Shown here: piece by piece, positions 1 through 14,988 of the stretch
How positions within the stretch are numbered: the stretch's first letter is position 1
How the letters are laid out: each line of letters begins with the position of its first letter
NCBI GenBank assembly: GCA_016839605.1
Contig: JAEOTX010000132.1
Span: 1 to 14,988, forward strand
Direction: 5' to 3'
Source: Candidatus Thorarchaeota archaeon
Lineage (GTDB): Archaea; Asgardarchaeota; Thorarchaeia; Thorarchaeales; Thorarchaeaceae
DNA: 14,988 nt
Notes under the pieces: generated by a model
Database searches by the model: none
Seen by the model: only the letters and a program-made list of their open reading frames with translations
What the model was told of the DNA's origin: nothing
Made by a program: the position numbers and the translations under genes

Positions 1-1231
1 AAAACGCTTCGACCAGAAACTGGCCCCATTTTTCACTACATCTCTTCTTTGCCAAGGCCAAGGCAGAGCCTATGTGAGCCACATCAGACTTTTTTGACAT
101 CCGTTCTGTCACATTCCCAATCAAGAATTCAATTGCATTGTGCATTTCGTCCAAATCCAATGTTGACATACTATCATTAATCTCACATTGTATATTGAGT
201 GGGCTGATTATCCTGACTCTTACTGTCCAAGGGTTCAATTTGACTCCGGTTTCCAAGGTAGATGTGAAGAATTCGTTCATTCTTGCAGAGCCAAGAATGG
301 ACTTGCCAAGCTGCAACAACTCATTCAATACACACTCATTTGCCAGTAGCAGTCGCCGCTCAGTAGAGATTCTCTGAACATATCCTCTGTTCACGAGGTC
401 ACCAAGTTCCAGAGGTATACTCCCTTCTCCAGTCAATTGAAACATCTCCAGAAATGCAGACAAGGGGCTGCGCCCGTCGAACGCACCAATGACTTTCATA
501 GTAGGGGTAGATATTCCCAATGGATTTTCTCGACTCAAGAGGGGTGATAGTGATCCCTCCGAAAGAGATAGTATATCATTGCCCGTGGGAACATATACTA
601 CTCGGATGGCATTATGCCAAAAAGCAAGTGCCACAACATCCTTGACTTCAGTGAGGGTCATGCGCTGTTTCTTTGCAATCATGTCAATAGTATGCCCACT
701 CTTGATCCGCATCAGGAACTTCATCACATGCATCAAAACTTCAGATGATTCAATAGGCAGCATTACCGATTCCCAGTCTGCGTTTCTAATGACAACTGAC
801 TTCTCAGATAATCTATCAAGTACTATGACACGCATGACGAATCTGTCGAAATCGGAGAGAGCCAATGCATCTATTCTGTCAAAGCTTCTGAAACTTCGGT
901 AATTCTCCTCAAATTCGCGGACTATTCGGCGGAGTTTGCTTCTGACCTCATTGGTCTCTCTTGATATCGCCATCACGCCTATAGCCCATTCCCCGCCTTC
1001 CACCAGAAGAACGATGTCCTCACCATACTCGGTCTTCCATTGAGTCTGTTCTCCCCCGGCCAATGTTCCAATGAAACTTGTCATCGCAGAAACAAAACCA
1101 GATAGGAGCTGTGGATCTAGACCGCCTGGAATGAACTCGTGAGAATACAAAGCCGCGCTGGTTTCCCGGTGAAGAATAAAGAGGACTTTCTCATTAGACA
1201 GCTCTTCATCATAGGTTATGGGGGAGGTCAT
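1..1231 (-). CDS. Longin-domain protein (about 410 aa, runs off the window start), Asgard-type, with probable C-terminal helical/winged-helix domains
   Basis: Not in the ORF track because it has no stop in the window. Manual translation from the ATG at 1231 gives MTSPITYDEELSNEKVLFILHRETSAALYSHEFIPGGLDPQLLSGFVSAMTSFIGTLAGG...EVRSKLRRIVREFEENY, open to base 2. The 'LFILHR..LYSHEF..DPQLLSGFVSAMTSF' pattern is typical of longin beta1-beta2-alpha1. A TATA-like TATAAA lies about 25-30 nt upstream on the minus strand. Confidence 0.8.
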   Translation of the reverse strand, partial: MTSPITYDEELSNEKVLFILHRETSAALYSHEFIPGGLDPQLLSGFVSAMTSFIGTLAGGEQTQWKTEYGEDIVLLVEGGEWAIGVMAISRETNEVRSKLRRIVREFEENYRSFRSFDRIDALALSDFDRFVMRVIVLDRLSEKSVVIRNADWESVMLPIESSEVLMHVMKFLMRIKSGHTIDMIAKKQRMTLTEVKDVVALAFWHNAIRVVYVPTGNDILSLSEGSLSPLLSRENPLGISTPTMKVIGAFDGRSPLSAFLEMFQLTGEGSIPLELGDLVNRGYVQRISTERRLLLANECVLNELLQLGKSILGSARMNEFFTSTLETGVKLNPWTVRVRIISPLNIQCEINDSMSTLDLDEMHNAIEFLIGNVTERMSKKSDVAHIGSALALAKKRCSEKWGQFLVEAF

Positions 1232-1407
1232 CTCACGTGATGAGCAGCAACCATTGTTTATACAAGTTGTTCATACCAATCACAAAAGCAGACACTATTT
1301 CACATCTTGAGTCAATGAATATTCTAGCAGGACTCTGTGCAAAATTGACAAATCAGATAATACGACAGATTGAACTGGCTCTATGTTGGAGTTCAGATGA
1401 AAGCGAT

Positions 1408-2226
1408 ATGAGAGTCAGCTCGGTCGAAGCCAAGAGTATCATTACGAAGAGCAATATTCCCGGAATTGACTATGTGATCAATCCATATATCGGATGTCAG
1501 CATGCTTGCCTCTATTGCTATGCGGAATTCATGAAGCGGTTCACTGGTCATGGTGGAGAGACCTGGGGAGAGTTCCTTGATGTAAAACAGTTTGGACTGG
1601 ATAAAATCAAGCCGGAGAAGTATGATGGAAAAACGATTCTTCTGAGCTCTGTCACAGACCCATACACGCCTTTGGAAGCTAAATATGAGAATACTAGAAG
1701 AGTATTGGAGCGTCTCATAGGTACGAAGGCGAAGATAGAGATACTAACCAAATCCCGTCTTGTAGAACGTGATATTGACTTGTTCAAGCAAATTGCACAC
1801 ATTCAGGTTGGTGTGTCTCTAAGCACTCTGAATGAGCAATTTGCCAAGAAGATCGAACCACGGGCATCTAATCCACACGACCGATTGCGCGCTTTGAAGA
1901 AGGTTGCAGATAGCGGCATTTCGACCTATGTCTTTCTGTCACCTATATTTCCCAAGATAACAGACTGGAGAGAGATAATTAGAGCCTCCGAATCTATCAC
2001 GAACGAATTTCACTTTGAGAACCTCAATTTCCGGGGTCATAATATAACTCGCATCATGGGCTTGATTGCAGAACAGTATCCAGAATTGGTGGAATACTAT
2101 GATCAAGTAAGGAAAGATACCACACTGTGGGATGTAATAGAGGAAGAAATCAAAGATCATTGCACGGGTCTGAACCTGCATTGCAAAATCGAGTTTCATC
2201 ACGGTGGCTTCACTAGAAGCAAGTGA
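1408..2226 (+). CDS. Radical SAM protein, spore-photoproduct-lyase-like (SplB-related) family
   Basis: 'INPYIGCQHACLYCYA' carries the CxxxCxxC motif, followed by 'SSVTDPY', 'ILTKS', 'RDIDL' and 'IEPRAS', typical of this family. The start is placed at the ATG at 1408 (MRVSSVEAKSII) because the extension from 1237 has no family-like sequence and overlaps the divergent promoter. Confidence 0.88.
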   Translation: MRVSSVEAKSIITKSNIPGIDYVINPYIGCQHACLYCYAEFMKRFTGHGGETWGEFLDVKQFGLDKIKPEKYDGKTILLSSVTDPYTPLEAKYENTRRVLERLIGTKAKIEILTKSRLVERDIDLFKQIAHIQVGVSLSTLNEQFAKKIEPRASNPHDRLRALKKVADSGISTYVFLSPIFPKITDWREIIRASESITNEFHFENLNFRGHNITRIMGLIAEQYPELVEYYDQVRKDTTLWDVIEEEIKDHCTGLNLHCKIEFHHGGFTRSK

Positions 2227-2266
2227 AAAGACTGGAATCTTTCAACGAATACGGGGTATCAATCTT

Positions 2267-2401
2267 CTAGTTCGCTTCTTTATGCCATCTATTGTTGTAC
2301 AGCACCTCTCCTAAAAGCCCTTGAGTCATTGGATTATCTGGGCTCTCCTTAGCCTGTCTCATGGCATCTTCGACTGAGAATCTATCTTCAAACTTCATCA
2401 T
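2267..2401 (-). pseudogene. Short ORF or truncated TPR-like fragment (44 aa, MMKFEDRFSVEDAMRQAKESPDNPMTQGLLGEVLYNNRWHKEAN)
   Basis: GAGGTG Shine-Dalgarno-like motif directly upstream. 'PDNP....LG.VLY.....EA' resembles a TPR turn plus helix A. The ORF stops early. Confidence 0.35.
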
Positions 2402-2545
2402 GCACCTCATATTCCCTAAGCATTGATGCATGCACTCAGATGTTAGCCTAGTAGCTCAAGAAGACGCGCCCACGCAGAGAGGGCAAATTGCGCTAAATCT
2501 ATATTAGAAATGGAGATTGTATGAGTATCTAGCTTTGGTGGAATC

Positions 2546-2884
2546 GTGTTGACGGGTTGGTGGTCAAGTACCCCAAGAGGTGTAGGAATTCTCGCAGATT
2601 TAGAGATTCTAGTAGGTATTGCGTATATCTTCCTAGGCGTAGTTTTCCTATTCTCCTTCTTAATTTCTGGCGTAAGTGTAATAGCTCTTGGCCTGATTCT
2701 GATATATATGGGATGGGCACTTGCCAGACTGGAAATTTGGGCATGGTGGGGTAGTCTATTGCTCAATGGGGTGATATGTGTGGGCAATATCATATTTGCC
2801 GGGGAATATCTTCTCATCATCCTATCTATCGCGATTATTGTCTATCTCCTGACTCCAGGAGTTCGTAACCGGTTCTTTCAATAA
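2546..2884 (+). CDS. Small integral membrane protein (about 4 TM helices)
   Basis: Four hydrophobic stretches and a C-terminal 'YLLTPGVRNRFF' motif of the kind common in small archaeal membrane proteins. GGTGG lies upstream of the GTG start. Confidence 0.75.
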   Translation: MLTGWWSSTPRGVGILADLEILVGIAYIFLGVVFLFSFLISGVSVIALGLILIYMGWALARLEIWAWWGSLLLNGVICVGNIIFAGEYLLIILSIAIIVYLLTPGVRNRFFQ

Positions 2885-2889
2885 TGAAA

Positions 2890-2915
2890 TGGGGCCCGAA
2901 GGGGGAATCGAACCC
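2890..2915 (-). pseudogene. 3' fragment of a disrupted tRNA-His (T-loop, acceptor 3' strand, C73, CCA)
   Basis: The minus strand reads GGGTTCGATTCCCCCTTCGGGCCCCA, 22/26 identical to the 3' end of the spliced tRNA-His at 7411-7515. Its acceptor strand TTCGGGC pairs with GCCCGAG of the 5' half at 14916-14922. Confidence 0.85.
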
Positions 2916-2980
2916 AGCGTTCATGGCATCTTTCGATTGATGTCATTGTATTTTGAAGGAGGTTTTTTTAAAATGAAATC

Positions 2981-3394
2981 ATGGAGGAGCTCAGAGAGAG
3001 TTTCCCTCTCGCCGCAAGTAGCATGGATGAACACTTGAAGAAGGTGCAGGAAAGAAGAGGCTTGGTGATGAGCATGGTGTCCAAGACCTTTCGTGATGAG
3101 GTGATGTCTAAACTGGATGATTTGGGAGTATTGGATGCGCTTGTTTATGAGAGATGGATAGAGGGAAGCAATGTCCCGTTTCCAAGAAACACTGAGGCGA
3201 TCAACATATTTCGAAACTCATTTGGTGATGACGAGCCTGTCAACGGGAAGCCCAGGAGTCCAACAAATGAAGCTGTGTCCAAGGAGATAGATGAGCAACT
3301 GGGTCGAATTCGAAAGGCCGCCGCCAATCTCATCATAGGGAAGGATGATCTAGTCAAGGAATTGATGACAAATAGAACTCAGCTATCACTCTAG
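2981..3394 (+). CDS. Hypothetical protein (helical, possibly a fragment)
   Basis: 137-aa ORF with protein-like composition and GGAGG upstream. No motif recognised. Confidence 0.6.
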   Translation: MEELRESFPLAASSMDEHLKKVQERRGLVMSMVSKTFRDEVMSKLDDLGVLDALVYERWIEGSNVPFPRNTEAINIFRNSFGDDEPVNGKPRSPTNEAVSKEIDEQLGRIRKAAANLIIGKDDLVKELMTNRTQLSL

Positions 3395-3655
3395 TCACAC
3401 CAACAGATGTATTGTCGGTGAAGCTGCCTTATTCATAGCGGGTGCAGTTTCGTTTTGGACATGTTCATAAATCGCTTAATCTCCAATACTCCAATATGGT
3501 CACCACCCCCTATTTTTCTTCTACGAGAATCTAGCAGGGCAATTGAATTGTCTTCTACCCATCAATTATTGTAGTCAAAGTCATTTTGTGAAGACTGAAA
3601 TTCTCCACAAACCTCATTATCGAGATATCATACGGTATAGAGAAGGGAAGCTTCC

Positions 3656-4129
3656 GTGAATCATCTATTTGAAGAAACAAGCATCAGGAGTAGTCCAAGA
3701 GTCGGCTCCCTATCCAAAGTGGCTATAATTGTACTGATTGCATTCATATTGTCCTCTGTATTTATCTTCTCACGTCCGACTGACAATGGTTCATTCGATG
3801 GCACCTTTACACATCAGTTCGACATATGGATGGAACCAAGAGACCACGAGTTCGTCATTCAAGTATCCTTCTACGAAACACGTTTTGATGCTGAGGAATC
3901 TGAGAATCGTCTGATTGCCGCGGGAGAGGTGATTACTCCCAACACCGATCATCAGACAATGTATCTGTATGATATACCCCTCTCATTGAACGGAGTGTGG
4001 ATCTCTATCTTCTGCAGATATGATACTGGGATTGTAACGGATACTGTGATTGACCAACTGCCCCTATCTGCTTCGAAGGTCATCATTGTTGATACTTTTG
4101 AGTTGACTCTCAGACTCACACTGTTCTGA
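3656..4129 (+). CDS. Membrane-anchored hypothetical protein (N-terminal TM, beta-rich exported domain)
   Basis: Hydrophobic segment VAIIVLIAFILSSVFIF followed by an acidic beta-strand-like region. Confidence 0.7.
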   Translation: MNHLFEETSIRSSPRVGSLSKVAIIVLIAFILSSVFIFSRPTDNGSFDGTFTHQFDIWMEPRDHEFVIQVSFYETRFDAEESENRLIAAGEVITPNTDHQTMYLYDIPLSLNGVWISIFCRYDTGIVTDTVIDQLPLSASKVIIVDTFELTLRLTLF

Positions 4130-4364
4130 TGAATGAGCAAAGCAGTTCCCAATAATGAAGAGAAGATGAATCGATATACACAGCAATTCCCATTGCCAAT
4201 GCCGATGATAGTAGTAGGAAGCACAATAAAGTGACGCACTTTCGTCGGAAGCTGTGAAACGCCTCGTAACCAGCGGGATGTGCTCAAGAGTTTGCTTTGT
4301 GTGGTTTGCCAATCCGTCCTCTGGAATTGAGTGCTTCTTCACTTAGAAGTTCATTATTAAAGTT

Positions 4365-4817
4365 CTAAGCCCATGGTGAGGCGGTTTCCTCAACTCGTTT
4401 GGGTGCGAAAAACAGAGCAAGAATCCCAGTGACTGTTGTAGGACTGCATAGGTGTGGTGTTTCTGAGATAGGACATGGAAATCCTAGCCACACAACAAGC
4501 AAATGAACCATCTGTAAGGCCAATACAATCTCCACATATCTCATTCTGGTCATATTCTGATCCGTGGTACTGTGCCATGCGAACCAAGCGATGGCTAATC
4601 CGGGTGCGTAGAAAGGAATCATGAGCAGGGTGTAGAGAATGTCAACGACAACTGGTGATGGATAGATGGGATTTCCCGGAGCATATGTCCATAGAGCAGC
4701 GTAGATGCCTGTAACGTGCATTGGTGTGAATCTGGTTACTATAATGACCTTGAATGGTGTTGCGAGGGTCCATGTTGTTAGAAATCCTGCTACTCGTCTA
4801 GGAGACCACCATGGCAT
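4365..4817 (-). CDS. Integral membrane hypothetical protein
   Basis: Strong GAGGTGA Shine-Dalgarno motif upstream of the ATG; 3-4 hydrophobic segments. Confidence 0.7.
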   Translation of the reverse strand: MPWWSPRRVAGFLTTWTLATPFKVIIVTRFTPMHVTGIYAALWTYAPGNPIYPSPVVVDILYTLLMIPFYAPGLAIAWFAWHSTTDQNMTRMRYVEIVLALQMVHLLVVWLGFPCPISETPHLCSPTTVTGILALFFAPKRVEETASPWA

Positions 4818-4886
4818 TATTACATCACCTCATAAGAAGCCTGGACTTGTATGACTTTCCAAATATTTTTGCACTCATCCAGCTTT

Positions 4887-5855
4887 TCAGAGTTCCGTAT
4901 CGCTAGGACTCTGTTCAAACAGACAATAGCCTGAGCTTAAGACTTTGCAGGTTTTCCTAGATTTCCGTTTGTGTTGAGCTTTGTGGGGCTTCTTTGATGT
5001 CCCTCCAGATCGCTGTGTTTTGTACAATGCTATATACAGTACACCGAATGCTCCAAGAGCTGCAAATCCCACGACGTTCGATGGCCCAGTGGATGGTCGA
5101 GCAATTGGGGGACCAAGATCGATGTTCGTGTCCACCAGTGAGATATCCCCTACCGCATAAGAGATGTTACCCAGTCCCAGCAGAACCAAGTCTGCGACAC
5201 CACCATTAGCTCTCAGAAGAACTCTTGCGTCCTTGTCGTACATCCTATGATGTGTCACATTTCCGTCTACGATGTGTAGGAATTTACATGCATATTGTAA
5301 GCCCTCCTGCTGTTCTTCCATCACAATTCCCTGGTACTCGTCATCAACAAGTTCCGCGGTGGCATTGAAATCAGCAATTGCAGATATTATCGACTCTCCA
5401 TCATCCCACTCGCCTAAAAAAAGACGAAGAATACCTGTCTGGCCTACAAGAGTGCCGCTTTCTATCACACATCTTCCCGATTTCATTGAGTAGTAGACGA
5501 GTTGGGAATGGTTCCAATTGTATCCAAGAGAAGTGTTACCATTGTAGCGTATTAGAACCCTAGCATCATCGGAGTCTACCCAGTCAAGAAACTCAAGCCG
5601 AATCAGTATCTCACTTTTCACTGCATGCCCTTCTTCATCCTCGTGAAGGACTTTGCCAGGTACGGACTGAATCAGGCCGTCATTAATAGTATAGTTCCAG
5701 AGCACAATGATAATGCTACTCAGAAGATACTCTAGATACAACCCCTCAATCTGATCCGATATTTGAAAGGGGAAGCAGCTATGGAGTGCAGAGTGAACTT
5801 GGGTCGTACACATATTTGCAAGCAGCAATGTGCTTATGATGATGACGAGCCTCAT
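4887..5855 (-). CDS. Secreted or cell-surface protein with signal peptide, C-terminal TM anchor and basic tail
   Basis: Start placed at MRLVIIISTLLLANM (ATG 5855), which removes the overlap with the upstream gene. The C-terminal VVGFAALGAFGVLYIALY is followed by a K/R-rich tail. Confidence 0.7.
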   Translation of the reverse strand: MRLVIIISTLLLANMCTTQVHSALHSCFPFQISDQIEGLYLEYLLSSIIIVLWNYTINDGLIQSVPGKVLHEDEEGHAVKSEILIRLEFLDWVDSDDARVLIRYNGNTSLGYNWNHSQLVYYSMKSGRCVIESGTLVGQTGILRLFLGEWDDGESIISAIADFNATAELVDDEYQGIVMEEQQEGLQYACKFLHIVDGNVTHHRMYDKDARVLLRANGGVADLVLLGLGNISYAVGDISLVDTNIDLGPPIARPSTGPSNVVGFAALGAFGVLYIALYKTQRSGGTSKKPHKAQHKRKSRKTCKVLSSGYCLFEQSPSDTEL

Positions 5856-5947
5856 TCTGTGGCCACTGCGTTTGACGGAGAAACCAATCCCGAACCCACG
5901 TTTGGCTAAACGATTTCTCGGCATTCCAAGCTGCCTCCAAACACACA

Positions 5948-6421
5948 TCAGAGCTCGTACCCGTCTGTGAAGGTGAAGCTTCCGCCGCCTGTGTGTGTTA
6001 CAGTTGTCTTCAGTTTTGGAAACTGTGTTCGAATTCTGAAGATGAACCACCATTCTATACATTCGAACTGAGCCCATGCGATGCGCTGGTCAGCATTAAC
6101 ATACGTTACTCCACTATCATGATCCCAGACAGTGTAGACCCCCTCAGCACCTCCGTAGTCAGTCGAATATTCGACATCATCAAGATCATCACCATCGCTA
6201 TAGGCAGTAGTTGTGATTTTTATCCAGGCGGGATGATCCCAGCCTGTATATAACTTATCTACGTCCCAGTCGTAAGGGTGCGGGTCTGATTCATACGTGT
6301 AGGCATTCACCGTCGGGATATATACTAGACCAACCAGAAAGGCTGCGAAGGCAAGACTCAACATGAGGGAATTGCGATGCGCCTCCCATCTGCTCATCCT
6401 TGGTTTTTCGTTCTTATTCAT
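5948..6421 (-). CDS. Small secreted protein (signal peptide, acidic/aromatic mature domain)
   Basis: AGGAG upstream. The hydrophobic signal LMLSLAFAAFLVGLVYIPTVNA is followed by a D/Y/W/T-rich domain. Confidence 0.75.
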   Translation of the reverse strand: MNKNEKPRMSRWEAHRNSLMLSLAFAAFLVGLVYIPTVNAYTYESDPHPYDWDVDKLYTGWDHPAWIKITTTAYSDGDDLDDVEYSTDYGGAEGVYTVWDHDSGVTYVNADQRIAWAQFECIEWWFIFRIRTQFPKLKTTVTHTGGGSFTFTDGYEL

Positions 6422-6712
6422 TTACATCTCTCCTTGTAGATTGTTCACGCAGCCATGAGATCTACGAGAGTCAACTTGCTCGCAGATTACGTCGCTGCGC
6501 GCTCCTCGGTCACCATTTGACTCAAGAATCAAAGGAACCTTGGATACTTACATAGCGCCGGTCGTACAATATATTGCCATTAATCAACTTTCCGACACTA
6601 TATTAGTACTCTTCGGTGGGAGGTGATGCTATTTAAACATATCGTATGACGATAAGTTTGACAAAGATTATTAGGGGCAGAAGACCCACAAATTCCAATT
6701 CGGAGTACTACG

Positions 6713-7039
6713 GTGAACATGATGACCGATCACAGACTGAGTTGGTTGGAGCAGCCAGGTGCACCACTCTTGCTCCTGAAACTTCTGGAACGAGATGAGT
6801 TCATCACAAGACTCCTCAGAAGTGCGGTCAATCCCGGTGGAGTGGCAACCCAGGACGGACTCAGAACGCTCAGAAACTTGCTTGGGAGTGAGAGGGGAGT
6901 TGGCCTCATTGATGAAGAGGAACGAAAAGGAGCGGGGCCCAGACCACGCCTGTACGTCTTTCTCACTCCATTGGGTCGGCAAGTAGCTGAACTACTAAAG
7001 CAGATCACTGATACCCTCGCAGAGAATGCTCAGGCTTAG
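6713..7039 (+). CDS. Winged-helix (MarR/HxlR/PadR-like) transcriptional regulator
   Basis: 'GLIDEEERKGAGPRPRLYVFLTPLGRQVAELL' is a classic wHTH wing with the LT..G motif. The gene is divergent from the secreted-protein genes. Confidence 0.8.
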   Translation: MNMMTDHRLSWLEQPGAPLLLLKLLERDEFITRLLRSAVNPGGVATQDGLRTLRNLLGSERGVGLIDEEERKGAGPRPRLYVFLTPLGRQVAELLKQITDTLAENAQA

Positions 7040-7269
7040 ATGTTGTACTGCTCCCGCACGGCACGAACAATCTCTGCTTCTTCTTGGAGACCTGCCTTTC
7101 TAAGCTTGACAGTGAACTCGGAGAGGATGGTCATCACCGGGCACTCCGGGCATTCTATTCGGTGCTCTCCGTACTTCTCCATGAGATCGTTCAGAATGTC
7201 CTCAAATGTCCTGATGAGTGCATCCCGGACAGCGGTCCGCGTGTCGTCACCGTTTCCTGCAGATGTCAT
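7036..7269 (-). CDS. Small hypothetical protein with HxxxCxxC motif (77 aa)
   Basis: MTSAGNGDDTRTAVRDALIRTFEDILNDLMEKYGEHRIECPECPVM..., with a TTTAAA TATA-like box about 25-30 nt upstream. The longer track ORF (to 7497) runs antisense through the tRNA and is rejected. Confidence 0.65.
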   Translation of the reverse strand: MTSAGNGDDTRTAVRDALIRTFEDILNDLMEKYGEHRIECPECPVMTILSEFTVKLRKAGLQEEAEIVRAVREQYNI

Positions 7270-7354
7270 CGCATGTGTGTCCTCGCGTCGGGATTTAAAC
7301 ACCCCCAAGAAGTTGCTACCATCAAGATATTGGACCCGGACACAGTTTGACGGG

Positions 7355-7376
7355 TACGGATAAGCTAATAAGACAA
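7355..7376 (+). promoter_or_regulatory. tRNA-His promoter element (copy 1)
   Basis: TACGGATAAGCTAATAAGACAA, identical to 14959-14980 (minus) and at essentially the same distance (35 vs 36 nt) from G-1 of each tRNA-His. Confidence 0.75.
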
Positions 7377-7410
7377 CGGCGAAAATCGGCTTCTTCGCCA
7401 CAAAAATCAT

Positions 7411-7515
7411 GGCCTGGGTGGTGTAACGGTAGCATAAGGGATTGTGGCTCCCTTGACGCGGGATTACACCTCCTTTTGAGGTGTGACGCGAATTCAATTC
7501 CCGCCCCGGGCCCCA
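7411..7515 (+). tRNA. tRNA-His(GUG) with encoded G-1, C73 and CCA, and a 30-nt intron (7463-7492) at position 53/54
   Basis: Acceptor GCCTGGG/CCCGGGC; anticodon arm AGGGA-TTGTGGC-TCCCT with GTG at 7444-7446; T-arm GCGGG-TTCAATT-CCCGC after splicing. Full hBHBh motif: TTGA/TCAA outer helix, CGCG/CGCG central helix, bulges GG^A and AA^T, inner helix TTACACCTC/GAGGTGTGA. Confidence 0.95.
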
Positions 7516-7530
7516 CTTTCTTCTTCAATT

Positions 7531-7700
7531 TCCCCTGACGCGGGTTCCTGACCCTGTTCTCATAGTGAGCGAACTCTAACCCATGAGCACTTCTATGTTT
7601 CACCCTTCTCATGCCAGGTGTCGCCACCAATTGCGACGTCACTCGCAATCCAGCATGAGCTTTGTCTGACATCATTGGGATGGGATCCCTCCCTCAGACT
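7531..7700 (-). ncRNA. Putative TnpB omega-RNA (reRNA); scaffold about 7548 to >7700, guide 7547->7531
   Basis: Lies downstream of and overlaps the tnpB 3' end, the established omega-RNA position. Nested stems on the minus strand: GTCTGA/TCAGAC; CTCATGCTGG/CTGGCATGAG enclosing ATTGCGA/TCGCAAT and GGTG/CACC; and CTCATGG/CTATGAG enclosing GAG-TTCG-CTC. It ends in GAACCCGCGTCAGGGGA, antisense to tRNA-His. The 5' boundary is unknown. Confidence 0.7.
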
Positions 7701-9342
7701 TGGCTTCTGTTTCCTGTTCATATCCAGATGCATCAGTTCTGGGAACAGAGAAGGTTTCCATAGAATTTTCCACGGCGGGGTCATTATCACTCATCCCCGG
7801 TTTGTCGCCAAAACTGAGAAGACTCGTTTGAGTAGTGTGAACAGCCGCGGACTCCCCAGGATGTGATACTTCATCTTTGGAGGGGAGTAAGGACTTCTTT
7901 TTGGAAGGATTTGCCTTCCTCCGAGCATTCGGAGCTGGAGGTCGCGCTGGCGTACTCCAACGTCCTAGTCCGTGGGTCTCATTCTTTAGTGATGGAATGA
8001 GCTTGATTAGGCGGCGAGCTATGTTTAGAGAGCCATTTCGGTCAGCATTAGTTTTGAATCCACATGAACAGGTGAAGAGATTCTGCTTTGGTCGGTTTCC
8101 TTTTCGGCCGCATTTCCAACACATAATGGAAGTCCACTGCTCTGGAATTGCGCGGAAACGTGCTTCTGAACCCTCAACCTTCCATCCTGACTGAGCTAGA
8201 GCATGTTTTAGTGACTGAGAAATTCTACCAAAGGACCAAGAATGAACCAACGCTCGAAACTTAGACCCCCTTGTGTTTCCTCTTCGTGCACTGCTTCTGA
8301 TGCCCTTTACTCTGCCAAGAGCTATGTACAAATCAAATCGCGAAGACAGTTCCTCGATATAATCGAGGATATCCCGAACCAGTACTCGGTCGTACTCCTT
8401 TGCCGCGTTTTCCCTCTTGGACCCCATTGCTTTGAGTCGTTTAGTCACAGAACTGGACTTCAGTCCTTTCTTAGTTCTGATGGCTTGAACTCGTTGAAGC
8501 TCAGCTACGCGGCTATCATATTTGGAAATGACAGCAACCTTTTCTTTCTGAACGAAATATCTTGTTTCAGAAACCTTACTCTCAGTAAGAAGAGTTGTGC
8601 ATGCAGCCTTCTTGACTCCGAGGTCGATACCGAGAACAGCTTTTGGTTTTGGAGGTGTGCTTCCAAAGACAACTTCAACCTTGACAGATAGGGTAGCCCA
8701 CCATTTCCGATTGCCATCGGTGTAGATTTGAAGAGCCCGTGGCTCACCTCTTCTCAACTGTTTTGTATGGAAGGGGGATATCTTTAGAGGAATCCTAAGT
8801 CTTTGGTGCACTTTCAATCCCAAGAGATTAGAATCAAGAGAGTCACGAAGATCTAACCAGAGTCGAGCTGCCTTGGTGGTCCTCCAAACCAGTTTAAAAC
8901 ACTGAGGAAAAGTCCATCGCGGAACCCTTCGCGAGCTGTTGATGGCACGAGGGCGTGAAGCACGCATCCCCTTCTTGCTTCTTAAAGCTAAATAGCTCTC
9001 ATAGAGTGCAACTGCAGTTCGACGACAGTCAGAGATTTCATTTGCTGAAATTCTTGGAAAGCGGGTTTTCATATCATGAGGAACATTCGTTCGTGGGAGG
9101 TTGCCCTTCTTTCCCCATGAGGTAGGGACAGTCAGAGCATCAAGTTTAGTTTGGTCAATCCGCTTTCGTTTCTTTCCTCGAAGGAGAACAGCTTCTTGCT
9201 GCTCAATTATCCCAAGATATGCTTGAATAACACGAGAGTCACGGGAAGCAATCTGCTTCAATCTCCGCTTAGCTCGTTTGGTCATTGACTCCCAGTTTAT
9301 AGGAATCTTGACACTAATCGTAATAGCTTGGGTGCGAGCCAC
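7672..9342 (-). CDS. tnpB: TnpB-family RNA-guided endonuclease with rearranged RuvC-II and a long disordered C-terminal tail
   Basis: RuvC-I 'VLGIDLG' (D240); RuvC-II 'YIALGRVKGIR' with G343 in place of the usual E; alternative E401 in 'IPEQWTS'; zinc finger C408/C411/C425/C427; RuvC-III 'NADRNGSLNIA' (D434). No tnpA nearby. Confidence 0.93.
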   Translation of the reverse strand: MARTQAITISVKIPINWESMTKRAKRRLKQIASRDSRVIQAYLGIIEQQEAVLLRGKKRKRIDQTKLDALTVPTSWGKKGNLPRTNVPHDMKTRFPRISANEISDCRRTAVALYESYLALRSKKGMRASRPRAINSSRRVPRWTFPQCFKLVWRTTKAARLWLDLRDSLDSNLLGLKVHQRLRIPLKISPFHTKQLRRGEPRALQIYTDGNRKWWATLSVKVEVVFGSTPPKPKAVLGIDLGVKKAACTTLLTESKVSETRYFVQKEKVAVISKYDSRVAELQRVQAIRTKKGLKSSSVTKRLKAMGSKRENAAKEYDRVLVRDILDYIEELSSRFDLYIALGRVKGIRSSARRGNTRGSKFRALVHSWSFGRISQSLKHALAQSGWKVEGSEARFRAIPEQWTSIMCWKCGRKGNRPKQNLFTCSCGFKTNADRNGSLNIARRLIKLIPSLKNETHGLGRWSTPARPPAPNARRKANPSKKKSLLPSKDEVSHPGESAAVHTTQTSLLSFGDKPGMSDNDPAVENSMETFSVPRTDASGYEQETEAKSEGGIPSQ

Positions 9343-9356
9343 ATCATTCGCCGCCT

Positions 9357-9464
9357 AGGTATATAAAGTTCTGACCTGTGCAGGTCATTAGAGTTCACTC
9401 CCTGTCTTGTCTGACAGGAAGCTTTTGAACTCGTATTGAATTCTATATGGAGGTATATAAAGTT
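9357..9464 (-). promoter_or_regulatory. Two identical 14-bp TATA-containing elements (9357-9370 and 9451-9464) flanking a structured segment
   Basis: AACTTTATATACCT (minus strand) occurs twice, 94 nt apart. The TATA of one copy is about 18 nt before the tnpB GTG. The other sits a similar distance before the hairpin that begins at 9432. Confidence 0.65.
9368..9432 (-). ncRNA. Structured element upstream of tnpB (small RNA, 5' leader, or transposon left-end relic)
   Basis: GAGTTCA-aaag-CTTCCTGTC-agacaa-GACAGGGAG-TGAACTC hairpin, then a TGACCTG/CAGGTCA inverted repeat. Shares motifs with the downstream omega-RNA. Confidence 0.5.
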
Positions 9465-9589
9465 ATAAAGCGAATATTTCAAACGTTTGTTTAATTTGAG
9501 AATTTATACATTAGGAACTGAAATATTCCCATTTTTTAATAAGACGAATAATTAATATGGTCACAATAGAATAAAGAAAATGTTGCGGC

Positions 9590-12500
9590 ATGACAAGGAA
9601 ACGAGGGAGGCCAAAGCGGCCATTACCCATGCACCCCAATCGGGTTCTAGCTCAATCCATTAAGACTGGGCTATCTACAGGACTGTACATCCAACGCATG
9701 GTGGAAAACCGCGTTACCAATCATATCTATGAGAGCTCTAAGCGAATTTGGAGAACTGCGAAAGCGCGCTACCAACAATCCTTGCGAGATGGAAAACCAG
9801 ATTTCAGTCATATCACTGAAGCTGAGAATAATATCAGGAAGAATTCGCAACAGATACTCTTCGAAAAAGCAGCAGTCTATGGAAATGTAGAGGTACAGCG
9901 AGCAAAAAGTAGAGACGACACTGTAGGCCCTATGAATCAGCTCCACAATATTGGAGGAGCGGCTATGCGGGAATTCGTCATAGCAAATTATCCGCAGCCT
10001 GATCTTCAACAAGTCCTTTCAGAAGATGGTGAAGTACGATTTGTGTATCCAGCTTCTTCCTTCGGGCCAGAAATTGAGCCGATTCATGTAACACTCCCAG
10101 AAATGGACTTCATTGACTCCTGCAGAGAGCATATCCAAGTACTTGATACTCATAGTTTCATATATGATGTCGAGAATAGAAACGCAAGCAGATATTGCAA
10201 TCTATTTCTCTTAAAGGCCAGACCATATCTTGATTACATCTACTCTGAACACATCTATGGGAAGGCTGGTTTCCGTGAAGGCACTCTAAGAACTCTAAAA
10301 GAACTAAAGGAAAGAATAGCTAGGACTCACAGTATACGAATAGGAAAAACGTCCACCGTGACGACTCATAGAAAAACCCATCATCCAAAATTCGATGTTG
10401 GTTTCTTTCAAGAGCAGATTAATGATGCAATATCTGCAAGAGTGTCGAGTATTGCCATTGATGAGATTCAACGTGTATTGGATGGCGGGTCGATAACAGA
10501 AACTGTTCTGGTAACGGATTCCGAGGGGAATATTGAGGGAGAAGAACCCGCACCTTGCTTGACCAAGAATGATGTTGAGTTCCTCTGGAAATCAGCGAGC
10601 GCCCTGGCACGGAAAAGAGGCACTCAGGTGCATCGTCTGATCTGCAGTCAGTTCCCCAGCTTCTGGAGTATCAAACGCGCTATTCTCAATGATGAGCCTA
10701 CGATTCATAATGATGGGTATCTAATGACCGCAGAAATTCCTGTGGATACAGAAAGAGGGAAGGGTCGTGTGGACCTGGTACTACTTCGAAGGGAAGCAAC
10801 AGCTGACGGGCTCAGGATTCTTTGGCGTCCAATATTTCTTCTCGAGATTAAGAGTAAACTTGGATTCTATTGGGAACTTGATGATATACTGAAAGAATCT
10901 GAATCAAGGAGAAGATATGGTCTTGAACAGCGAGTGGTATCTAATTTTCCGATTTCAACAAGACCACTCGACGATAATGAATGGCGCGCAATAATAGAGT
11001 CACAAATAGATGACGAGCTTTTGATTCAGGTTAACACTTACGCTAATGCGGTATGCAACGAATACATGTCGATATCCGGAGATGAAAGCAATAGTCCGAT
11101 TCTTAGAGGAACTCTGTTCATAGATGCTGAAGACGATGTCGACTGCCATAGATCTTTGATACGAGGATTTGCCATTCGCGTCTACGAATCAGCTTCCAGC
11201 ATTAGTGGCGAGATTCAGAATGCATTATATGAGCCAATAGTTGGTGGTGATGTACCGAAACTTGCCATCGTTCTTCACAAGCAGGAATTGGAAAAAGATA
11301 GCACCAAAGTGTTCATTTCACCCCCTCGGATTCATACATATAATCCACTCACTGAATCCAACATTCTAAAACGCCATTTCATTCTCTATCTTTCTGCGAG
11401 TTCTGCAACTTCTGGTGGCAAATCAGCTGCATGGATTTCCCAATACTACAATGGTCTTCAAGAAATTCATGAGATGGCGAAAGAAGCTAATCCATCCAAT
11501 TTGATATGGCTAGATTTGGCGGATGAATTCACTAAGCCTCGACTTGCTGAAACACGCCTGCGACTTCTACCTTATTCCAAATCTGAGGATGATAAGTATA
11601 GAAGCCATCCAGATGGCATCCGCAAATTCTTCGAGTCATTCGAAATTCATGGCTTCTACAAAGAGATTGGGAGGTTCCTAATGAATGATGGCCCACTCCC
11701 ATCTATAGAAAGCATGTTTCATAAAATCAGAGGAAAGAGCATTGTCGTTGTTAGTGGATGGGAATGGATTAAGAAATCGACGCCGGAACCATATCGGTCA
11801 AACCTCAACAAGCTGTTGGGGTATATTCTGGATCAGCTTCCTAGAAGTGAGGGAACTACCATAATCTGGTTTGACACACCTGAGGTTACTGAGAGTTCGT
11901 CACCCATCTATCAAACAAGGACTTTGGTGCCATTCCATGAATCTTCCCCCCTCTATGGAGAGGTGAATGAAATTATATGGAACATGCCATCAGCGCCTAG
12001 AAGAGAGGTCAATCCAGATGAATGGATACTCCCAGTTGTTCCTGCCGCTCCTGTATACGATGACATAAGAGTGATCATAACTCAGACTTTGCAAGGGTAT
12101 GGAGTGGAGCTGACTCACATACCAGCACTCATGGGTTGGTCCGATAAATTTCGGAGTGAGGGGCTTAGATTCTGGCAACGACAATATCCAAAGCCTGTTG
12201 ACATTCAGCTAGTTCCGGAGAAAGGAATTCGAGATAGAATCAAGATTCTTGCTTTCGAGTTAATACCCTGGTTGCCAGACCTTTGGCCAGATTTTTCAGC
12301 CATAGATTCTCTGAAAGATTCAGATTCGGAATTGCTTTGGAGCATAAGATCAAACCATGACAGAAACATAGGTGATATCAAAGTTGCTAAGCGAATTTTG
12401 AAAGATGGAGGTTCCGTAGAGCTTAGTATTCTTCAAAGGATGAAATACAGGCCGAAAGGCATTCGTGGTGGAAAATCGTATCAATCATTGACAGCAAATA

Positions 12501-14710
12501 GAATCAACTCGCAGCGTTTCTATCGTGGACCCAATGAGCTGAAAACGAATCTGAAGCCTTCCTATGAATCAAAATCGGAAACAACTGAGCCAGTTCTTGG
12601 CAAACAAAAAGATGTAGCATTTGGTAGGATAATATCAACTGATGATTCGCAACATCAAAGTGAAGCGATTGTAGTCGAAAATCCGTATCAGCCGGGTAAT
12701 GTCCTCGTAGGAGTATTCACAGAAAGAGTCAGACCAAGTCAATCCGGTTTTGTCTGGTCGGTTCATGATTCAGAACGTCTAGAGGAGTTTCTGCAAACAG
12801 GTTCTTCGACAAGAGAAATTGATCTCTTATTGAGGAAAACTGGAGATAGGTGGGAATCGTGGAGTTGGGACTCAAAGAATAAGGAATGGAATTATCGAGG
12901 AATTGCAGAGCTAATTACAGGAAGAGAAGGCCGAGTTTCAGAACTCAAAGCAATAAGGGAAATGCCTGAAAGTTCTAGCCACAAGAAACCAGTTGTGAAG
13001 ATACCAGAGTGGTTCAACAAGACAGTGGACATGGCTCTGAAAAGGCTCGCATTCCAACATCAGTCATTGAATAGGGTTTCTCTAACTTTGCACAGCGTTT
13101 CTGATCAATGTAAAGTAAGTTTCACTAGTGAGAAGGCAGCTGACATCTTGCATGAGGTAACTGTTCAAGGCACAGCAGACCTCATCGATCTCCTACGATG
13201 GCCCTTGAAGAATGGGGGACCAATGCCTATCAGGAATTCAGCTCGGTTGTATTGGTCCCCATTTGAGGATATAGAATATGGTGAATTTGACGCAATAAGA
13301 CCGTTTGTGGAAACAAAAGCGCCCCACGATGTAAAGAGAACATTGCCGCCGCTAGTCAAAGACCTTCACGAGCTTTCTGAGACCTTGACTGTAACAGCAG
13401 TATTAACCCATGATGAAGAATTATGCCCATTAGTAAACCGTGAGATATCCGATCATAGAAAATGCTGGCGCGTCGAAATGCGTTCAAAATCAACAAAGGT
13501 TCAGGACAAGAAATTCGCAATGCCATTAAATGGCAAGCAAGTCTTTGGACTCTTATCGTCAAAGCAAATCATAATCGATGGAACTCAAAGACCACTTCAA
13601 ATTGAGATGACGTCTAACCCAGATGCGCCTGAATCTATTGTGCTACACGAAAACTATTGGATACGCAGATTGATGAAAGAATATGGCCGATCCTTACCGC
13701 GCTTAGCTTCTGGCACCTATCTAAAGGTCAGAAACCAGAAATGGGTGATTTCCTTTTCTTTCGAAGGAAATTGGATCGTGTGGACTGCTAGGTCTGATGT
13801 AACAGGACTTCTTAGAGGGAAACCAACTTTCGATTACAGACTTAATCCATCCCTAACTTTGAATCAAGCTACAAAACAGTTCATAGAATCTCTAACGGAC
13901 ATTGTACCAAAAGCAAGCATAAAGGGATTCAGTGAACTCAAGACAAGGATTAGGGGAGCACTTGAAAAGAAAGGCTACAGCAAGTCCACTCCTGATTGTA
14001 TCTTAGAATTAAGTACAAGCAAGAATCAGATTACAATTGCACTGACTCGAGCAGATGGCAAAATCGGAGGAGTCATTGCTGAGAACAAATTCGTGTATGA
14101 CAGAAATGTCTCTATTGAGATGGTTTTAGAACGTGTCCAAGAATGGCTGGAATTTGGTCCTCCTATAAATTGCACTATTGCTAATGAAACGGAAATAATT
14201 GAGGAGCTTCAGTCGTATCTTATCGATTTGGGTGATTTTAAGGAGGATGATGAAAGCGAATCTCAGATGGATTTTGAAACTGAACTCAAAACTGTAGTGA
14301 AAGATCTTAGAGAAGAAGCTGAAATCGATTCCAGCAAACTGGAACTGCTGGCACACTCTTTATCCCAGTTAGCGCATTTGCACCTTGAGAAGCAAGATTT
14401 TGAAAATGCCTTTAGATTCATCGACGAAAGCATTAGCATATTGGAAAACCAGATTCAATTGCTAGATCCTTTTGAATGGGGTTCATCTCTTAAACGAAAA
14501 TTCGTTAGGGCTTTGATTACTAAGAGGAAGATTCTAAATCGCGCTGGTCAAGAGCATTATCCAGATGACATCAAGAAAGTCATGCAAGAAAAGTTTGAAT
14601 TCGCCAAAGAACAGATGCTCTCTCTGGGAAGACACCTCTCTGATGAAGACCGAGTACTCATTGACGAGATGAATCATGTATTTTCTGAGAATCCACAAGA
14701 TTCTCTCTGA
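9590..14710 (+). CDS. Giant (1706 aa) protein with a PD-(D/E)xK (RecB/Cas4-like) nuclease domain, possible degenerate P-loop domain and C-terminal TPR-like helices
   Basis: 'AEIPV..GRVDLVLL' (D395), 'LLEIKSK' (E419/K421) and 'QVNTYA' (Q480, QxxxY motif). 'SATSGGKS' (about 605-612) is Walker-A-like. 'LAHSLSQLAHLHLEKQDFENAFRFIDESISILE' near the C-terminus is TPR-like. Confidence 0.75.
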   Translation: MTRKRGRPKRPLPMHPNRVLAQSIKTGLSTGLYIQRMVENRVTNHIYESSKRIWRTAKARYQQSLRDGKPDFSHITEAENNIRKNSQQILFEKAAVYGNVEVQRAKSRDDTVGPMNQLHNIGGAAMREFVIANYPQPDLQQVLSEDGEVRFVYPASSFGPEIEPIHVTLPEMDFIDSCREHIQVLDTHSFIYDVENRNASRYCNLFLLKARPYLDYIYSEHIYGKAGFREGTLRTLKELKERIARTHSIRIGKTSTVTTHRKTHHPKFDVGFFQEQINDAISARVSSIAIDEIQRVLDGGSITETVLVTDSEGNIEGEEPAPCLTKNDVEFLWKSASALARKRGTQVHRLICSQFPSFWSIKRAILNDEPTIHNDGYLMTAEIPVDTERGKGRVDLVLLRREATADGLRILWRPIFLLEIKSKLGFYWELDDILKESESRRRYGLEQRVVSNFPISTRPLDDNEWRAIIESQIDDELLIQVNTYANAVCNEYMSISGDESNSPILRGTLFIDAEDDVDCHRSLIRGFAIRVYESASSISGEIQNALYEPIVGGDVPKLAIVLHKQELEKDSTKVFISPPRIHTYNPLTESNILKRHFILYLSASSATSGGKSAAWISQYYNGLQEIHEMAKEANPSNLIWLDLADEFTKPRLAETRLRLLPYSKSEDDKYRSHPDGIRKFFESFEIHGFYKEIGRFLMNDGPLPSIESMFHKIRGKSIVVVSGWEWIKKSTPEPYRSNLNKLLGYILDQLPRSEGTTIIWFDTPEVTESSSPIYQTRTLVPFHESSPLYGEVNEIIWNMPSAPRREVNPDEWILPVVPAAPVYDDIRVIITQTLQGYGVELTHIPALMGWSDKFRSEGLRFWQRQYPKPVDIQLVPEKGIRDRIKILAFELIPWLPDLWPDFSAIDSLKDSDSELLWSIRSNHDRNIGDIKVAKRILKDGGSVELSILQRMKYRPKGIRGGKSYQSLTANRINSQRFYRGPNELKTNLKPSYESKSETTEPVLGKQKDVAFGRIISTDDSQHQSEAIVVENPYQPGNVLVGVFTERVRPSQSGFVWSVHDSERLEEFLQTGSSTREIDLLLRKTGDRWESWSWDSKNKEWNYRGIAELITGREGRVSELKAIREMPESSSHKKPVVKIPEWFNKTVDMALKRLAFQHQSLNRVSLTLHSVSDQCKVSFTSEKAADILHEVTVQGTADLIDLLRWPLKNGGPMPIRNSARLYWSPFEDIEYGEFDAIRPFVETKAPHDVKRTLPPLVKDLHELSETLTVTAVLTHDEELCPLVNREISDHRKCWRVEMRSKSTKVQDKKFAMPLNGKQVFGLLSSKQIIIDGTQRPLQIEMTSNPDAPESIVLHENYWIRRLMKEYGRSLPRLASGTYLKVRNQKWVISFSFEGNWIVWTARSDVTGLLRGKPTFDYRLNPSLTLNQATKQFIESLTDIVPKASIKGFSELKTRIRGALEKKGYSKSTPDCILELSTSKNQITIALTRADGKIGGVIAENKFVYDRNVSIEMVLERVQEWLEFGPPINCTIANETEIIEELQSYLIDLGDFKEDDESESQMDFETELKTVVKDLREEAEIDSSKLELLAHSLSQLAHLHLEKQDFENAFRFIDESISILENQIQLLDPFEWGSSLKRKFVRALITKRKILNRAGQEHYPDDIKKVMQEKFEFAKEQMLSLGRHLSDEDRVLIDEMNHVFSENPQDSL

Positions 14711-14884
14711 ACTGAACTACCTTGAAAAGGCGTAGATGATTCTAAGCGTAAATGGTTGTACTATTATTGTGGATTACGGATGTCTGACCATAGTAAGGAA
14801 AGCTTGAATGCCAATAGCAAACAACCCTTGTTTTACTAGGACTAGTAATTGATGCATTGCATGGAACAAGACCTTCAGAATCCT

Positions 14885-14923
14885 ATCCACAATCCCCTAT
14901 GCTGCCATTACACCACTCGGGCC
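14885..14923 (-). pseudogene. 5' half of a disrupted tRNA-His(GUG) (G-1 through position 39)
   Basis: The minus strand reads GGCCCGAGTGGTGTAATGGCAGCATAGGGGATTGTGGAT, 32/38 identical to the 5' part of the tRNA-His at 7411. The anticodon GTG is at 14888-14890. tRNA similarity stops right after the anticodon loop. Confidence 0.9.
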
Positions 14924-14958
14924 ATAGCTGTGTGGCCAGCGATGTCATGCTCATGATT

Positions 14959-14980
14959 TTGTCTTATTAGCTTATCCGTA
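14959..14980 (-). promoter_or_regulatory. tRNA-His promoter element (copy 2)
   Basis: Exact 22-nt match to 7355-7376, located upstream of the tRNA 5' half. Confidence 0.75.
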
Positions 14981-14988
14981 GAATATCT

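Follow-up and report, generated by a model that had tools for sequence, protein, structure and literature searches.

The reasons for which archaea acquire introns in their tRNA genes, and retain them, are still unsettled. One idea, in discussion since 2008, is that the introns protect against mobile DNA, and we know of no direct test of it. The question takes a concrete form in the 14,988 nucleotides of Candidatus Thorarchaeota archaeon analysed here (contig JAEOTX010000132.1, positions 1 to 14,988 of the forward strand; the window), in which a tRNA-His gene with an intron in its T-arm lies close to a gene for TnpB whose predicted guide matches the same tRNA. A sequence-only reading had regarded the intron as self-immunity that splits the target of the adjacent nuclease in the DNA, with the nuclease as both its selective reason and its route of spread. 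Is the intron such a shield? The explanation that we consider probable is an ordinary Asgard intron at position 53/54, residing in the spare His gene of an element of known type and interrupting the guide match mostly as a by-product. The intron is probably not a purpose-built shield, and the case for self-immunity is weak.

The tRNA-His(GUG) gene is located inside the element at 7411-7515(+), with exons at 7411-7462 and 7493-7515. No tRNA was reported in the window by default ARAGORN, this gene included, and the output of relaxed genome-wide ARAGORN was mostly noise. The gene was recognized by an Rfam tRNA match at 7412-7512(+) (E 4.8e-6) with an insertion in the T-arm, and displays the landmarks of tRNA-His: G-1 at 7411, the GUG anticodon at 7444-7446 and an encoded CCA at 7513-7515. 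Excision of the 30-nt intron (7463-7492(+), delimited by Rfam alignment, folding and shuffles) yields the 5-bp T-stem, the T-loop and the acceptor stem of a full cloverleaf, with exons shared by intron-less relatives. The region 7450-7500 folds into a strict hBHBh' structure (z = -3.57), composed of a 4-bp exon helix (7453-7456/7494-7497), a 4-bp CGCG central helix (7457-7460/7487-7490), a 9-bp intron helix (7464-7472/7478-7486) and two bulges of 3 nt each (7461-7463 and 7491-7493) with the cut sites after the second bulge nucleotide. Both helices were obtained in 0 of 200,000 shuffles of the intron insert. On the restored cloverleaf, the strict motif and the shuffles, the bulge-helix-bulge intron at 53/54 described by the sequence-only reading is real. 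It has no coding capacity. The host assembly encodes the catalytic subunit of EndA (PF01974 match above the cut-off at G000:C93), and from established BHB/EndA biochemistry both bulges would be cut by EndA and ligation would give a normal tRNA-His.

No other intact His gene was found in the assembly (80% complete), and the allele at 7411-7515 differs from that of the genus. The helices of the BHB motif would be kept because the carried copy is the working His gene. A block of 22 nt upstream of it (7355-7376(+)) is identical, in inverted orientation, to 14959-14980 upstream of the 5' half of the resident gene, and this sequence identity makes it a probable tRNA-His promoter. Just upstream of the carried tRNA, a segment of 2035 bp (5239-7273) is missing in contigs of three runs, which show the joint 5238-7274; this polymorphic insert holds the ORFs 5948-6421 and 6713-7039 and most of 7036-7290.

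The neighbouring TnpB (7672-9342(-), 556 aa) possesses a RuvC domain and a C4 zinc finger. It matches PF07282 above the cut-off, and NF040570 with an E value of 1.9e-24 that is yet below the cut-off. Its RuvC residues are D240, G343 at the usual glutamate site, a relocated E401 and D434. The relocated-glutamate motif is present in all 73 of the TnpB homologs compared, and this rearrangement has already been described (PMC10691335). The 3' part of the predicted omega-RNA scaffold was placed at 7548-7740(-) by family alignment, with conservation extending into the coding end of tnpB. It carries a GTTCACTCA-type motif at 7574-7565, with one substitution in this copy, and terminates in GGTCAG (7553-7548); the GTTCACTCA motif downstream of tnpB is likewise known (PMC10691335). 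On the other strand, a giant ORF of 1706 aa (9590-14710(+)) has an N-terminal region of about 240 aa whose model folds like the Cas1 catalytic domain (aCas1-type). Neither profile search nor PDB sequence search recognized the giant protein, whose homologs are labelled Thorarchaeota, in line with the host group. Every one of the best 12 structural matches of its N-terminal model is a Cas1 or a casposase, with Z of 8.2-12.2, rmsd of 2.9-4.4 and 141-197 aligned residues; Z alone is only moderate because the model is helical, and Foldseek gives a weak agreement with Cas1 (E 4e-3). The Cas1-fold giant, the TnpB and the GTTCACTCA-type motif together fit the aCas1-associated Asgard TnpB elements (PMC10691335). 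After the Cas1-fold domain, a PD-(D/E)xK-like nuclease motif was seen by eye at residues ~380-425 of the giant protein, and D395 and K421 are invariant in 27 homologs.

The resident tRNA-His gene is found in two pieces, a 5' half (G-1 to G37) at 14887-14923(-) and a 3' end (G51 to CCA) at 2890-2915(-), both identical to the genus allele and with 12 nt absent between them (positions 38-50). High-depth contig pieces, probably from the source run, start sharply at 2886, which fits an element boundary; the depth of contigs is not a copy number. A contig joining 2915 to 14887 through 12 letters was considered as the empty site and rejected, since these letters match the allele of another relative (L014 type). 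A second tRNA half was looked for just upstream of tnpB and none was found there, because the other element end lies beyond the giant gene. Similar layouts, in which one side bears a broken piece of the His gene and the opposite side an intact copy in inverted orientation, were found in G017, G032, G058 and G003, and split-tRNA layouts also at Arg and Thr genes of other genomes. The arrangement is thus one in which a spare His copy lies within an aCas1-TnpB element that interrupts the resident His gene and is presumably mobile.

Conservation among 77 homologous loci (57 of them readable) stops at RGGTYA plus one base, which places the predicted guide of this copy at 7547-7531(-). This guide has 17 nt and is antisense to positions 56-39 of tRNA-His. 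The boundary that the sequence-only reading had assumed is upheld by the family alignment and by the leader mimic described below. The guide matches the intron-less tRNA-His alleles of G045, G080 and G017 at 17/17 positions, the resident genus allele at 16/17 (mismatch at nt 7) and the spliced carried tRNA-His at 16/17 (mismatch at nt 13). Alignment of the guide to the carried tRNA also confirms that the intron splits the predicted protospacer between guide nt 3 and 4. A register of 14/17 is retained in the intron-containing DNA (mismatches at 1, 3 and 13, with an altered 5' flank), so the site is damaged in the seed and not destroyed. Among sites in the rest of the assembly that share the first six bases of the guide, none matches with fewer than three mismatches, and no exact match was found in the viral contig collection. 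At the level of the family, 12 of 53 distinct guides score at least 11 against an incomplete tRNA catalogue, compared with 4 of 265 shuffles, and further guide-tRNA matches were found by hand. Shuffles are the only control for these matches, as a control at +60 nt picked up neighbouring tRNAs (5/52). This excess over shuffles, together with the recurring split-tRNA layouts, bears out the relation of TnpB-family guides to tRNA genes. In G058, two repeated units follow tnpB, each followed by a piece of the tRNA-His anticodon arm.

Some variation around this theme was observed. The units of the G058 array (L158:860-970) copy different His alleles, and the resident His gene of G058 is broken after position 35, within the first guide match. 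Repeated guide units likewise occur in L033, L036 and L103. In a TnpB subgroup (L044, L113, L115, L119, L121, L122 and L126) the scaffold, mostly without the usual RGGTYA end, runs directly into a convergent tRNA-Gly 3' end. The guide after the scaffold end of L048 (G083) has no match in the tRNA catalogue, and presumably resembles a 16S rRNA stretch in antisense.

The position of the intron lends itself to a local exaptation, which we regard as possible though rather unlikely: the intron arose independently, and the element kept or preferentially captured an intron-bearing His allele, because the intron takes away the seed match and its sole working His gene would thus be spared from cutting or guided re-insertion by its own TnpB. 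It is favoured by an intron that falls after guide nt 3 and is accompanied by only one other mismatch (nt 13), by closest His alleles that are intron-less, by a nuclease that appears from its sequence to have the conserved relocated-glutamate catalytic set, and by family guides that match the type of tRNA that is split, including the two-guide array of G058 with its His anticodon-arm alleles. Against it stands the 14/17 register that persists in the intron-containing DNA. The loss of TnpB from the G003 element, whose spare copy is intron-less, fits either view; there, L145 keeps the arrangement of split His gene, giant gene and intron-less spare His gene, and has no tnpB.

A further constraint on exaptation comes from the tnpB leader. 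This structured region (9357-9432(-)) contains a hairpin with a GGTCAG end (9432-9371) and, next to it, 14 nt (9370-9357) that exactly copy part of the upstream TATA region (9451-9469(-); matched part 9464-9451, 5' flank TTTAT at 9469-9465). In 49 of 60 homologous loci, a hairpin of this kind, again with the GGTCAG end, precedes an exact copy of the upstream TATA region of that locus. The copies are 9-17 nt long (median 13 nt), and their match to the own locus is 13.2 nt, versus 2.8 nt across loci. In front of the copied TATA site stands TT[A/C]AT, whose T at -4 and T at -1 are invariant (49/49). These patterns suggest that the leader copy is a second guide with TT[A/C]AT as its TAM, and it looks like a short one that would serve self-repression of tnpB. 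The TAM is derived from a promoter flank that overlaps promoter elements and is maybe conserved for transcription. The flanks of the His site are GAATT in the spliced copy and GAATC in the resident allele, and against the putative TT[A/C]AT only the T at -1 of the spliced copy fits. The motif is missing at this tRNA-His with or without the intron, which speaks against exaptation; if the TAM is right, the carried His gene would not be cut in either state. The full motif was also found at 0 intact cognate tRNA sites of related elements, and these sites have nothing TAM-like in common beyond a frequent T at -1.

We further compared related elements for introns in guide-matched tRNAs. The sample is small and was paired by hand; it comprises 15 independent elements in which both a guide and its intact cognate tRNA were identified, plus G038 (16). 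Of the 12 introns in the 15 elements, 3 fall within the matched 16 nt, with 2.4 expected (P = 0.45, which leaves room for a weak effect); when G038 is added, whose intron is outside the match, the count is 3 of 13 with ~2.6 expected. The lack of enrichment is evidence against exaptation. Among the 15 elements, only the carried tRNA-His (7463-7492) has its intron in the seed. In G058 and G084 an intron also lies within the match, in its distal part, a point in favour of exaptation. Most intact cognate copies bear at least two substitutions relative to the guide, and near-perfect matches with no intron inside were found at G022 Leu, G026 Ser, G020/G003 Asp and G038 Tyr, the last with a guide crossing an intron-less 53/54 junction. 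Since the tolerated matches are mostly of 13-14 nt, danger from a 16/17 match is not fully excluded by them.

The 53/54 intron was then placed among those of other Asgard genomes. Out of 301 Asgard genomes, 52 have its 3' junction pattern; within the family the figure is 37 of 76, and the reversed control gave 0. Both junctions are present in 28 of the first 30 junction loci, and TnpB lies within 1.5 kb of none of them. A total of 32 distinct introns of 28-33 nt were obtained from His, Thr, Ala, Lys, Leu and other tRNAs, all with a central helix of 4 bp, a feature that is in part imposed by the search pattern. In 25 longer regions there were one intact TnpB (1.5 kb off), one distant TnpB fragment and 0 aCas1 giants; by eye, the guide region of the lone intact TnpB has no match to the tRNA at that locus. 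The intron of tRNA-Thr(GGU) is retained in many genera of the family, which suggests vertical inheritance. With respect to tRNA-His, the 53/54 intron occurs in G029 (91% complete), where both the TnpB protein of the window and the TnpB family profile find nothing, so that presence of the intron does not follow presence of tnpB, an outcome that the sequence-only reading had itself named as refuting; the G029 assembly is incomplete, and loss of TnpB there is possible. It also occurs in G012 and G099, where the fetched flanks contain neither TnpB nor aCas1; both genomes have TnpBs elsewhere, and the four G012 loci that were read show no His match.

By our own count, the intron is present in 3 of ~40 intact His genes of the family and in 3 of the 10 His alleles with a CGCG T-stem. 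About a quarter of comparable alleles are thus intron-bearing and chance capture is not unlikely, which weakens exaptation. Six His genes share an identical T-arm context, and the carried copy is the only one with an intron; against a background of about 1/4, this is modest evidence for protection. No close copy of the 7463-7492 intron was found elsewhere; of its 24 unconstrained positions, other introns share 14 at the most. The three His introns were considered for common ancestry, which is not borne out, as a Lys intron reaches the same 14/24. Taken against the sequence-only reading, the widespread junction, the His introns at loci without TnpB, the lack of enrichment at guide sites, the tolerated near-perfect matches and the missing putative TAM give no support to the adjacent nuclease as the selective reason for the intron, and a junction that is not tied to TnpB loci, with no close copies of the intron, gives none to TnpB as its route of spread.

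The explanation by an ordinary intron would accordingly run as follows in its steps. Introns of the 53/54 class would recur in T-stems that provide the central helix through a self-complementary CGCG, and the element would have picked up a His allele when a fair share of the alleles with such a T-stem already bore an intron. Lying across the guide match, the intron would make pairing weaker, most likely as a by-product. Across the family, it is mainly by substitutions that a carried or neighbouring tRNA departs from the guide, and the tRNA sites lack the putative TAM. Against the by-product view, the carried copy has one distal mismatch, and the intron is its sole large difference from the guide. 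The wider claim that Thorarchaeota aCas1-TnpB elements land in and split tRNA genes by means of tRNA-derived guides and carry a guide-resistant spare, with the seed intron conferring resistance here, is tentative and held at well under even chances.

Far less probable is that the 17-nt segment is an integration-site remnant at the element end and not a working guide, in which case there would be nothing to be immune from. It would accord with the whole tRNA half that occupies the guide position in G052, G041 and G033, with tRNA sites that share no TAM beyond the frequent T at -1, and with the placement of the guide upstream of the GTTCACTCA motif that PMC10691335 proposed. Most matches, however, are internal pieces of 13-19 nt, of the same length as in the co-varying leader copy, and each of the two repeated units of G058 is followed by a His piece. 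A remnant is compatible with the ordinary-intron explanation and is largely counted within it.

In collaborative homing, a free-standing homing endonuclease acts together with an intron that interrupts its recognition site. The present locus is alike in that the intron breaks the matched site of an adjacent nuclease, and differs in showing no sign of joint spread and a target that was split and not converted. RNA-guided homing, in which TnpB would cut intron-less His alleles and repair would spread intron and nuclease together, is very improbable despite a guide that is perfect against intron-less alleles of other genera and a distance of only 180 nt between nuclease and intron, since the intron has no close copy elsewhere (at most 14/24 unconstrained positions shared), other His-targeted elements have 37/38 introns or none, the resident gene is split with a loss of 12 nt, and 53/54 introns are unlinked to TnpB.

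Both the intron and its host element have known counterparts. Position 53/54 is a listed non-canonical position of archaeal tRNA introns (review PMC4090602), and T-arm introns are common in Asgard according to a census that found no general mobile-element route for them, with limited power (bioRxiv 10.64898/2026.10.13.758758). The present intron resembles those of both sources in position, length (~30 nt), strict BHB motif and lack of coding capacity. Nothing intrinsic sets it apart; what distinguishes this copy is only the guide match next to it. The hypothesis of Randau and Soll (2008), as summarized in PMC4090602, holds that tRNA introns block the integration of viruses and mobile elements. 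In that summary, as here, the intron hides the tRNA sequence in the DNA and leaves the mature tRNA unchanged; it concerns integrase att sites in host genes, whereas the locus described here has an RNA-guided nuclease as the candidate attacker and an intron in the element's own spare gene. The Cas1H-Asgard-1/-2 elements (Altae-Tran 2023, PMC10691335) share the divergent Cas1-fold giant, TnpB, the GTTCACTCA motif and flanking repeats. They were suggested to have the guide upstream of the motif, whereas here the variable tRNA-matching segment follows the GGTCAG end, 10-20 nt downstream; the flanking repeats are here pieces of tRNA, which the main text of that paper does not mention. At the Caldiarchaeum tRNA-Thr(GGU) locus (Sugahara 2012, PMC3293823), a mobile element also has a fragment of the tRNA beside it, along with an intact copy that bears an intron. 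It differs as a recombinase-encoding insertion of 1.8 kb, and its abstract does not refer to an RNA-guided nuclease.

The kind of intron and the type of element are therefore already known. In the mostly open-access literature, neither guides of Thorarchaeota TnpB that match tRNAs nor guides of TnpB against its own promoter were found to be reported. As to why 53/54 introns exist in general, the comparison across genomes argues against TnpB as the cause. The locus nevertheless offers a defined nuclease, a guide and a substrate pair for a direct test of the protection idea, and if the seed intron does give resistance, it would provide an example, open to direct test, of DNA that a tRNA intron shields from an RNA-guided enzyme.

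The wider element is worth attention apart from the intron, and this setting is of more interest than self-immunity. A Cas1-fold protein, a TnpB whose guides match tRNAs, a spare tRNA and a candidate guide to the tnpB promoter itself may together constitute an RNA-guided integration system. On other contigs of the host assembly (G000 C47, C120, C106, C109, C156, C31 and C75), many isolated copies of tRNA 3' ends were seen, with at most three per contig, which suggests frequent integration at tRNA genes. At the junction past the resident 5' half (14860-14886(-)), 13 bases recur in a TnpB scaffold remnant on G000 C70, a recurrence that may be due to chance. Outside the element, the window encodes a radical SAM protein with weak similarity to spore photoproduct lyase (1237-2226(+)).
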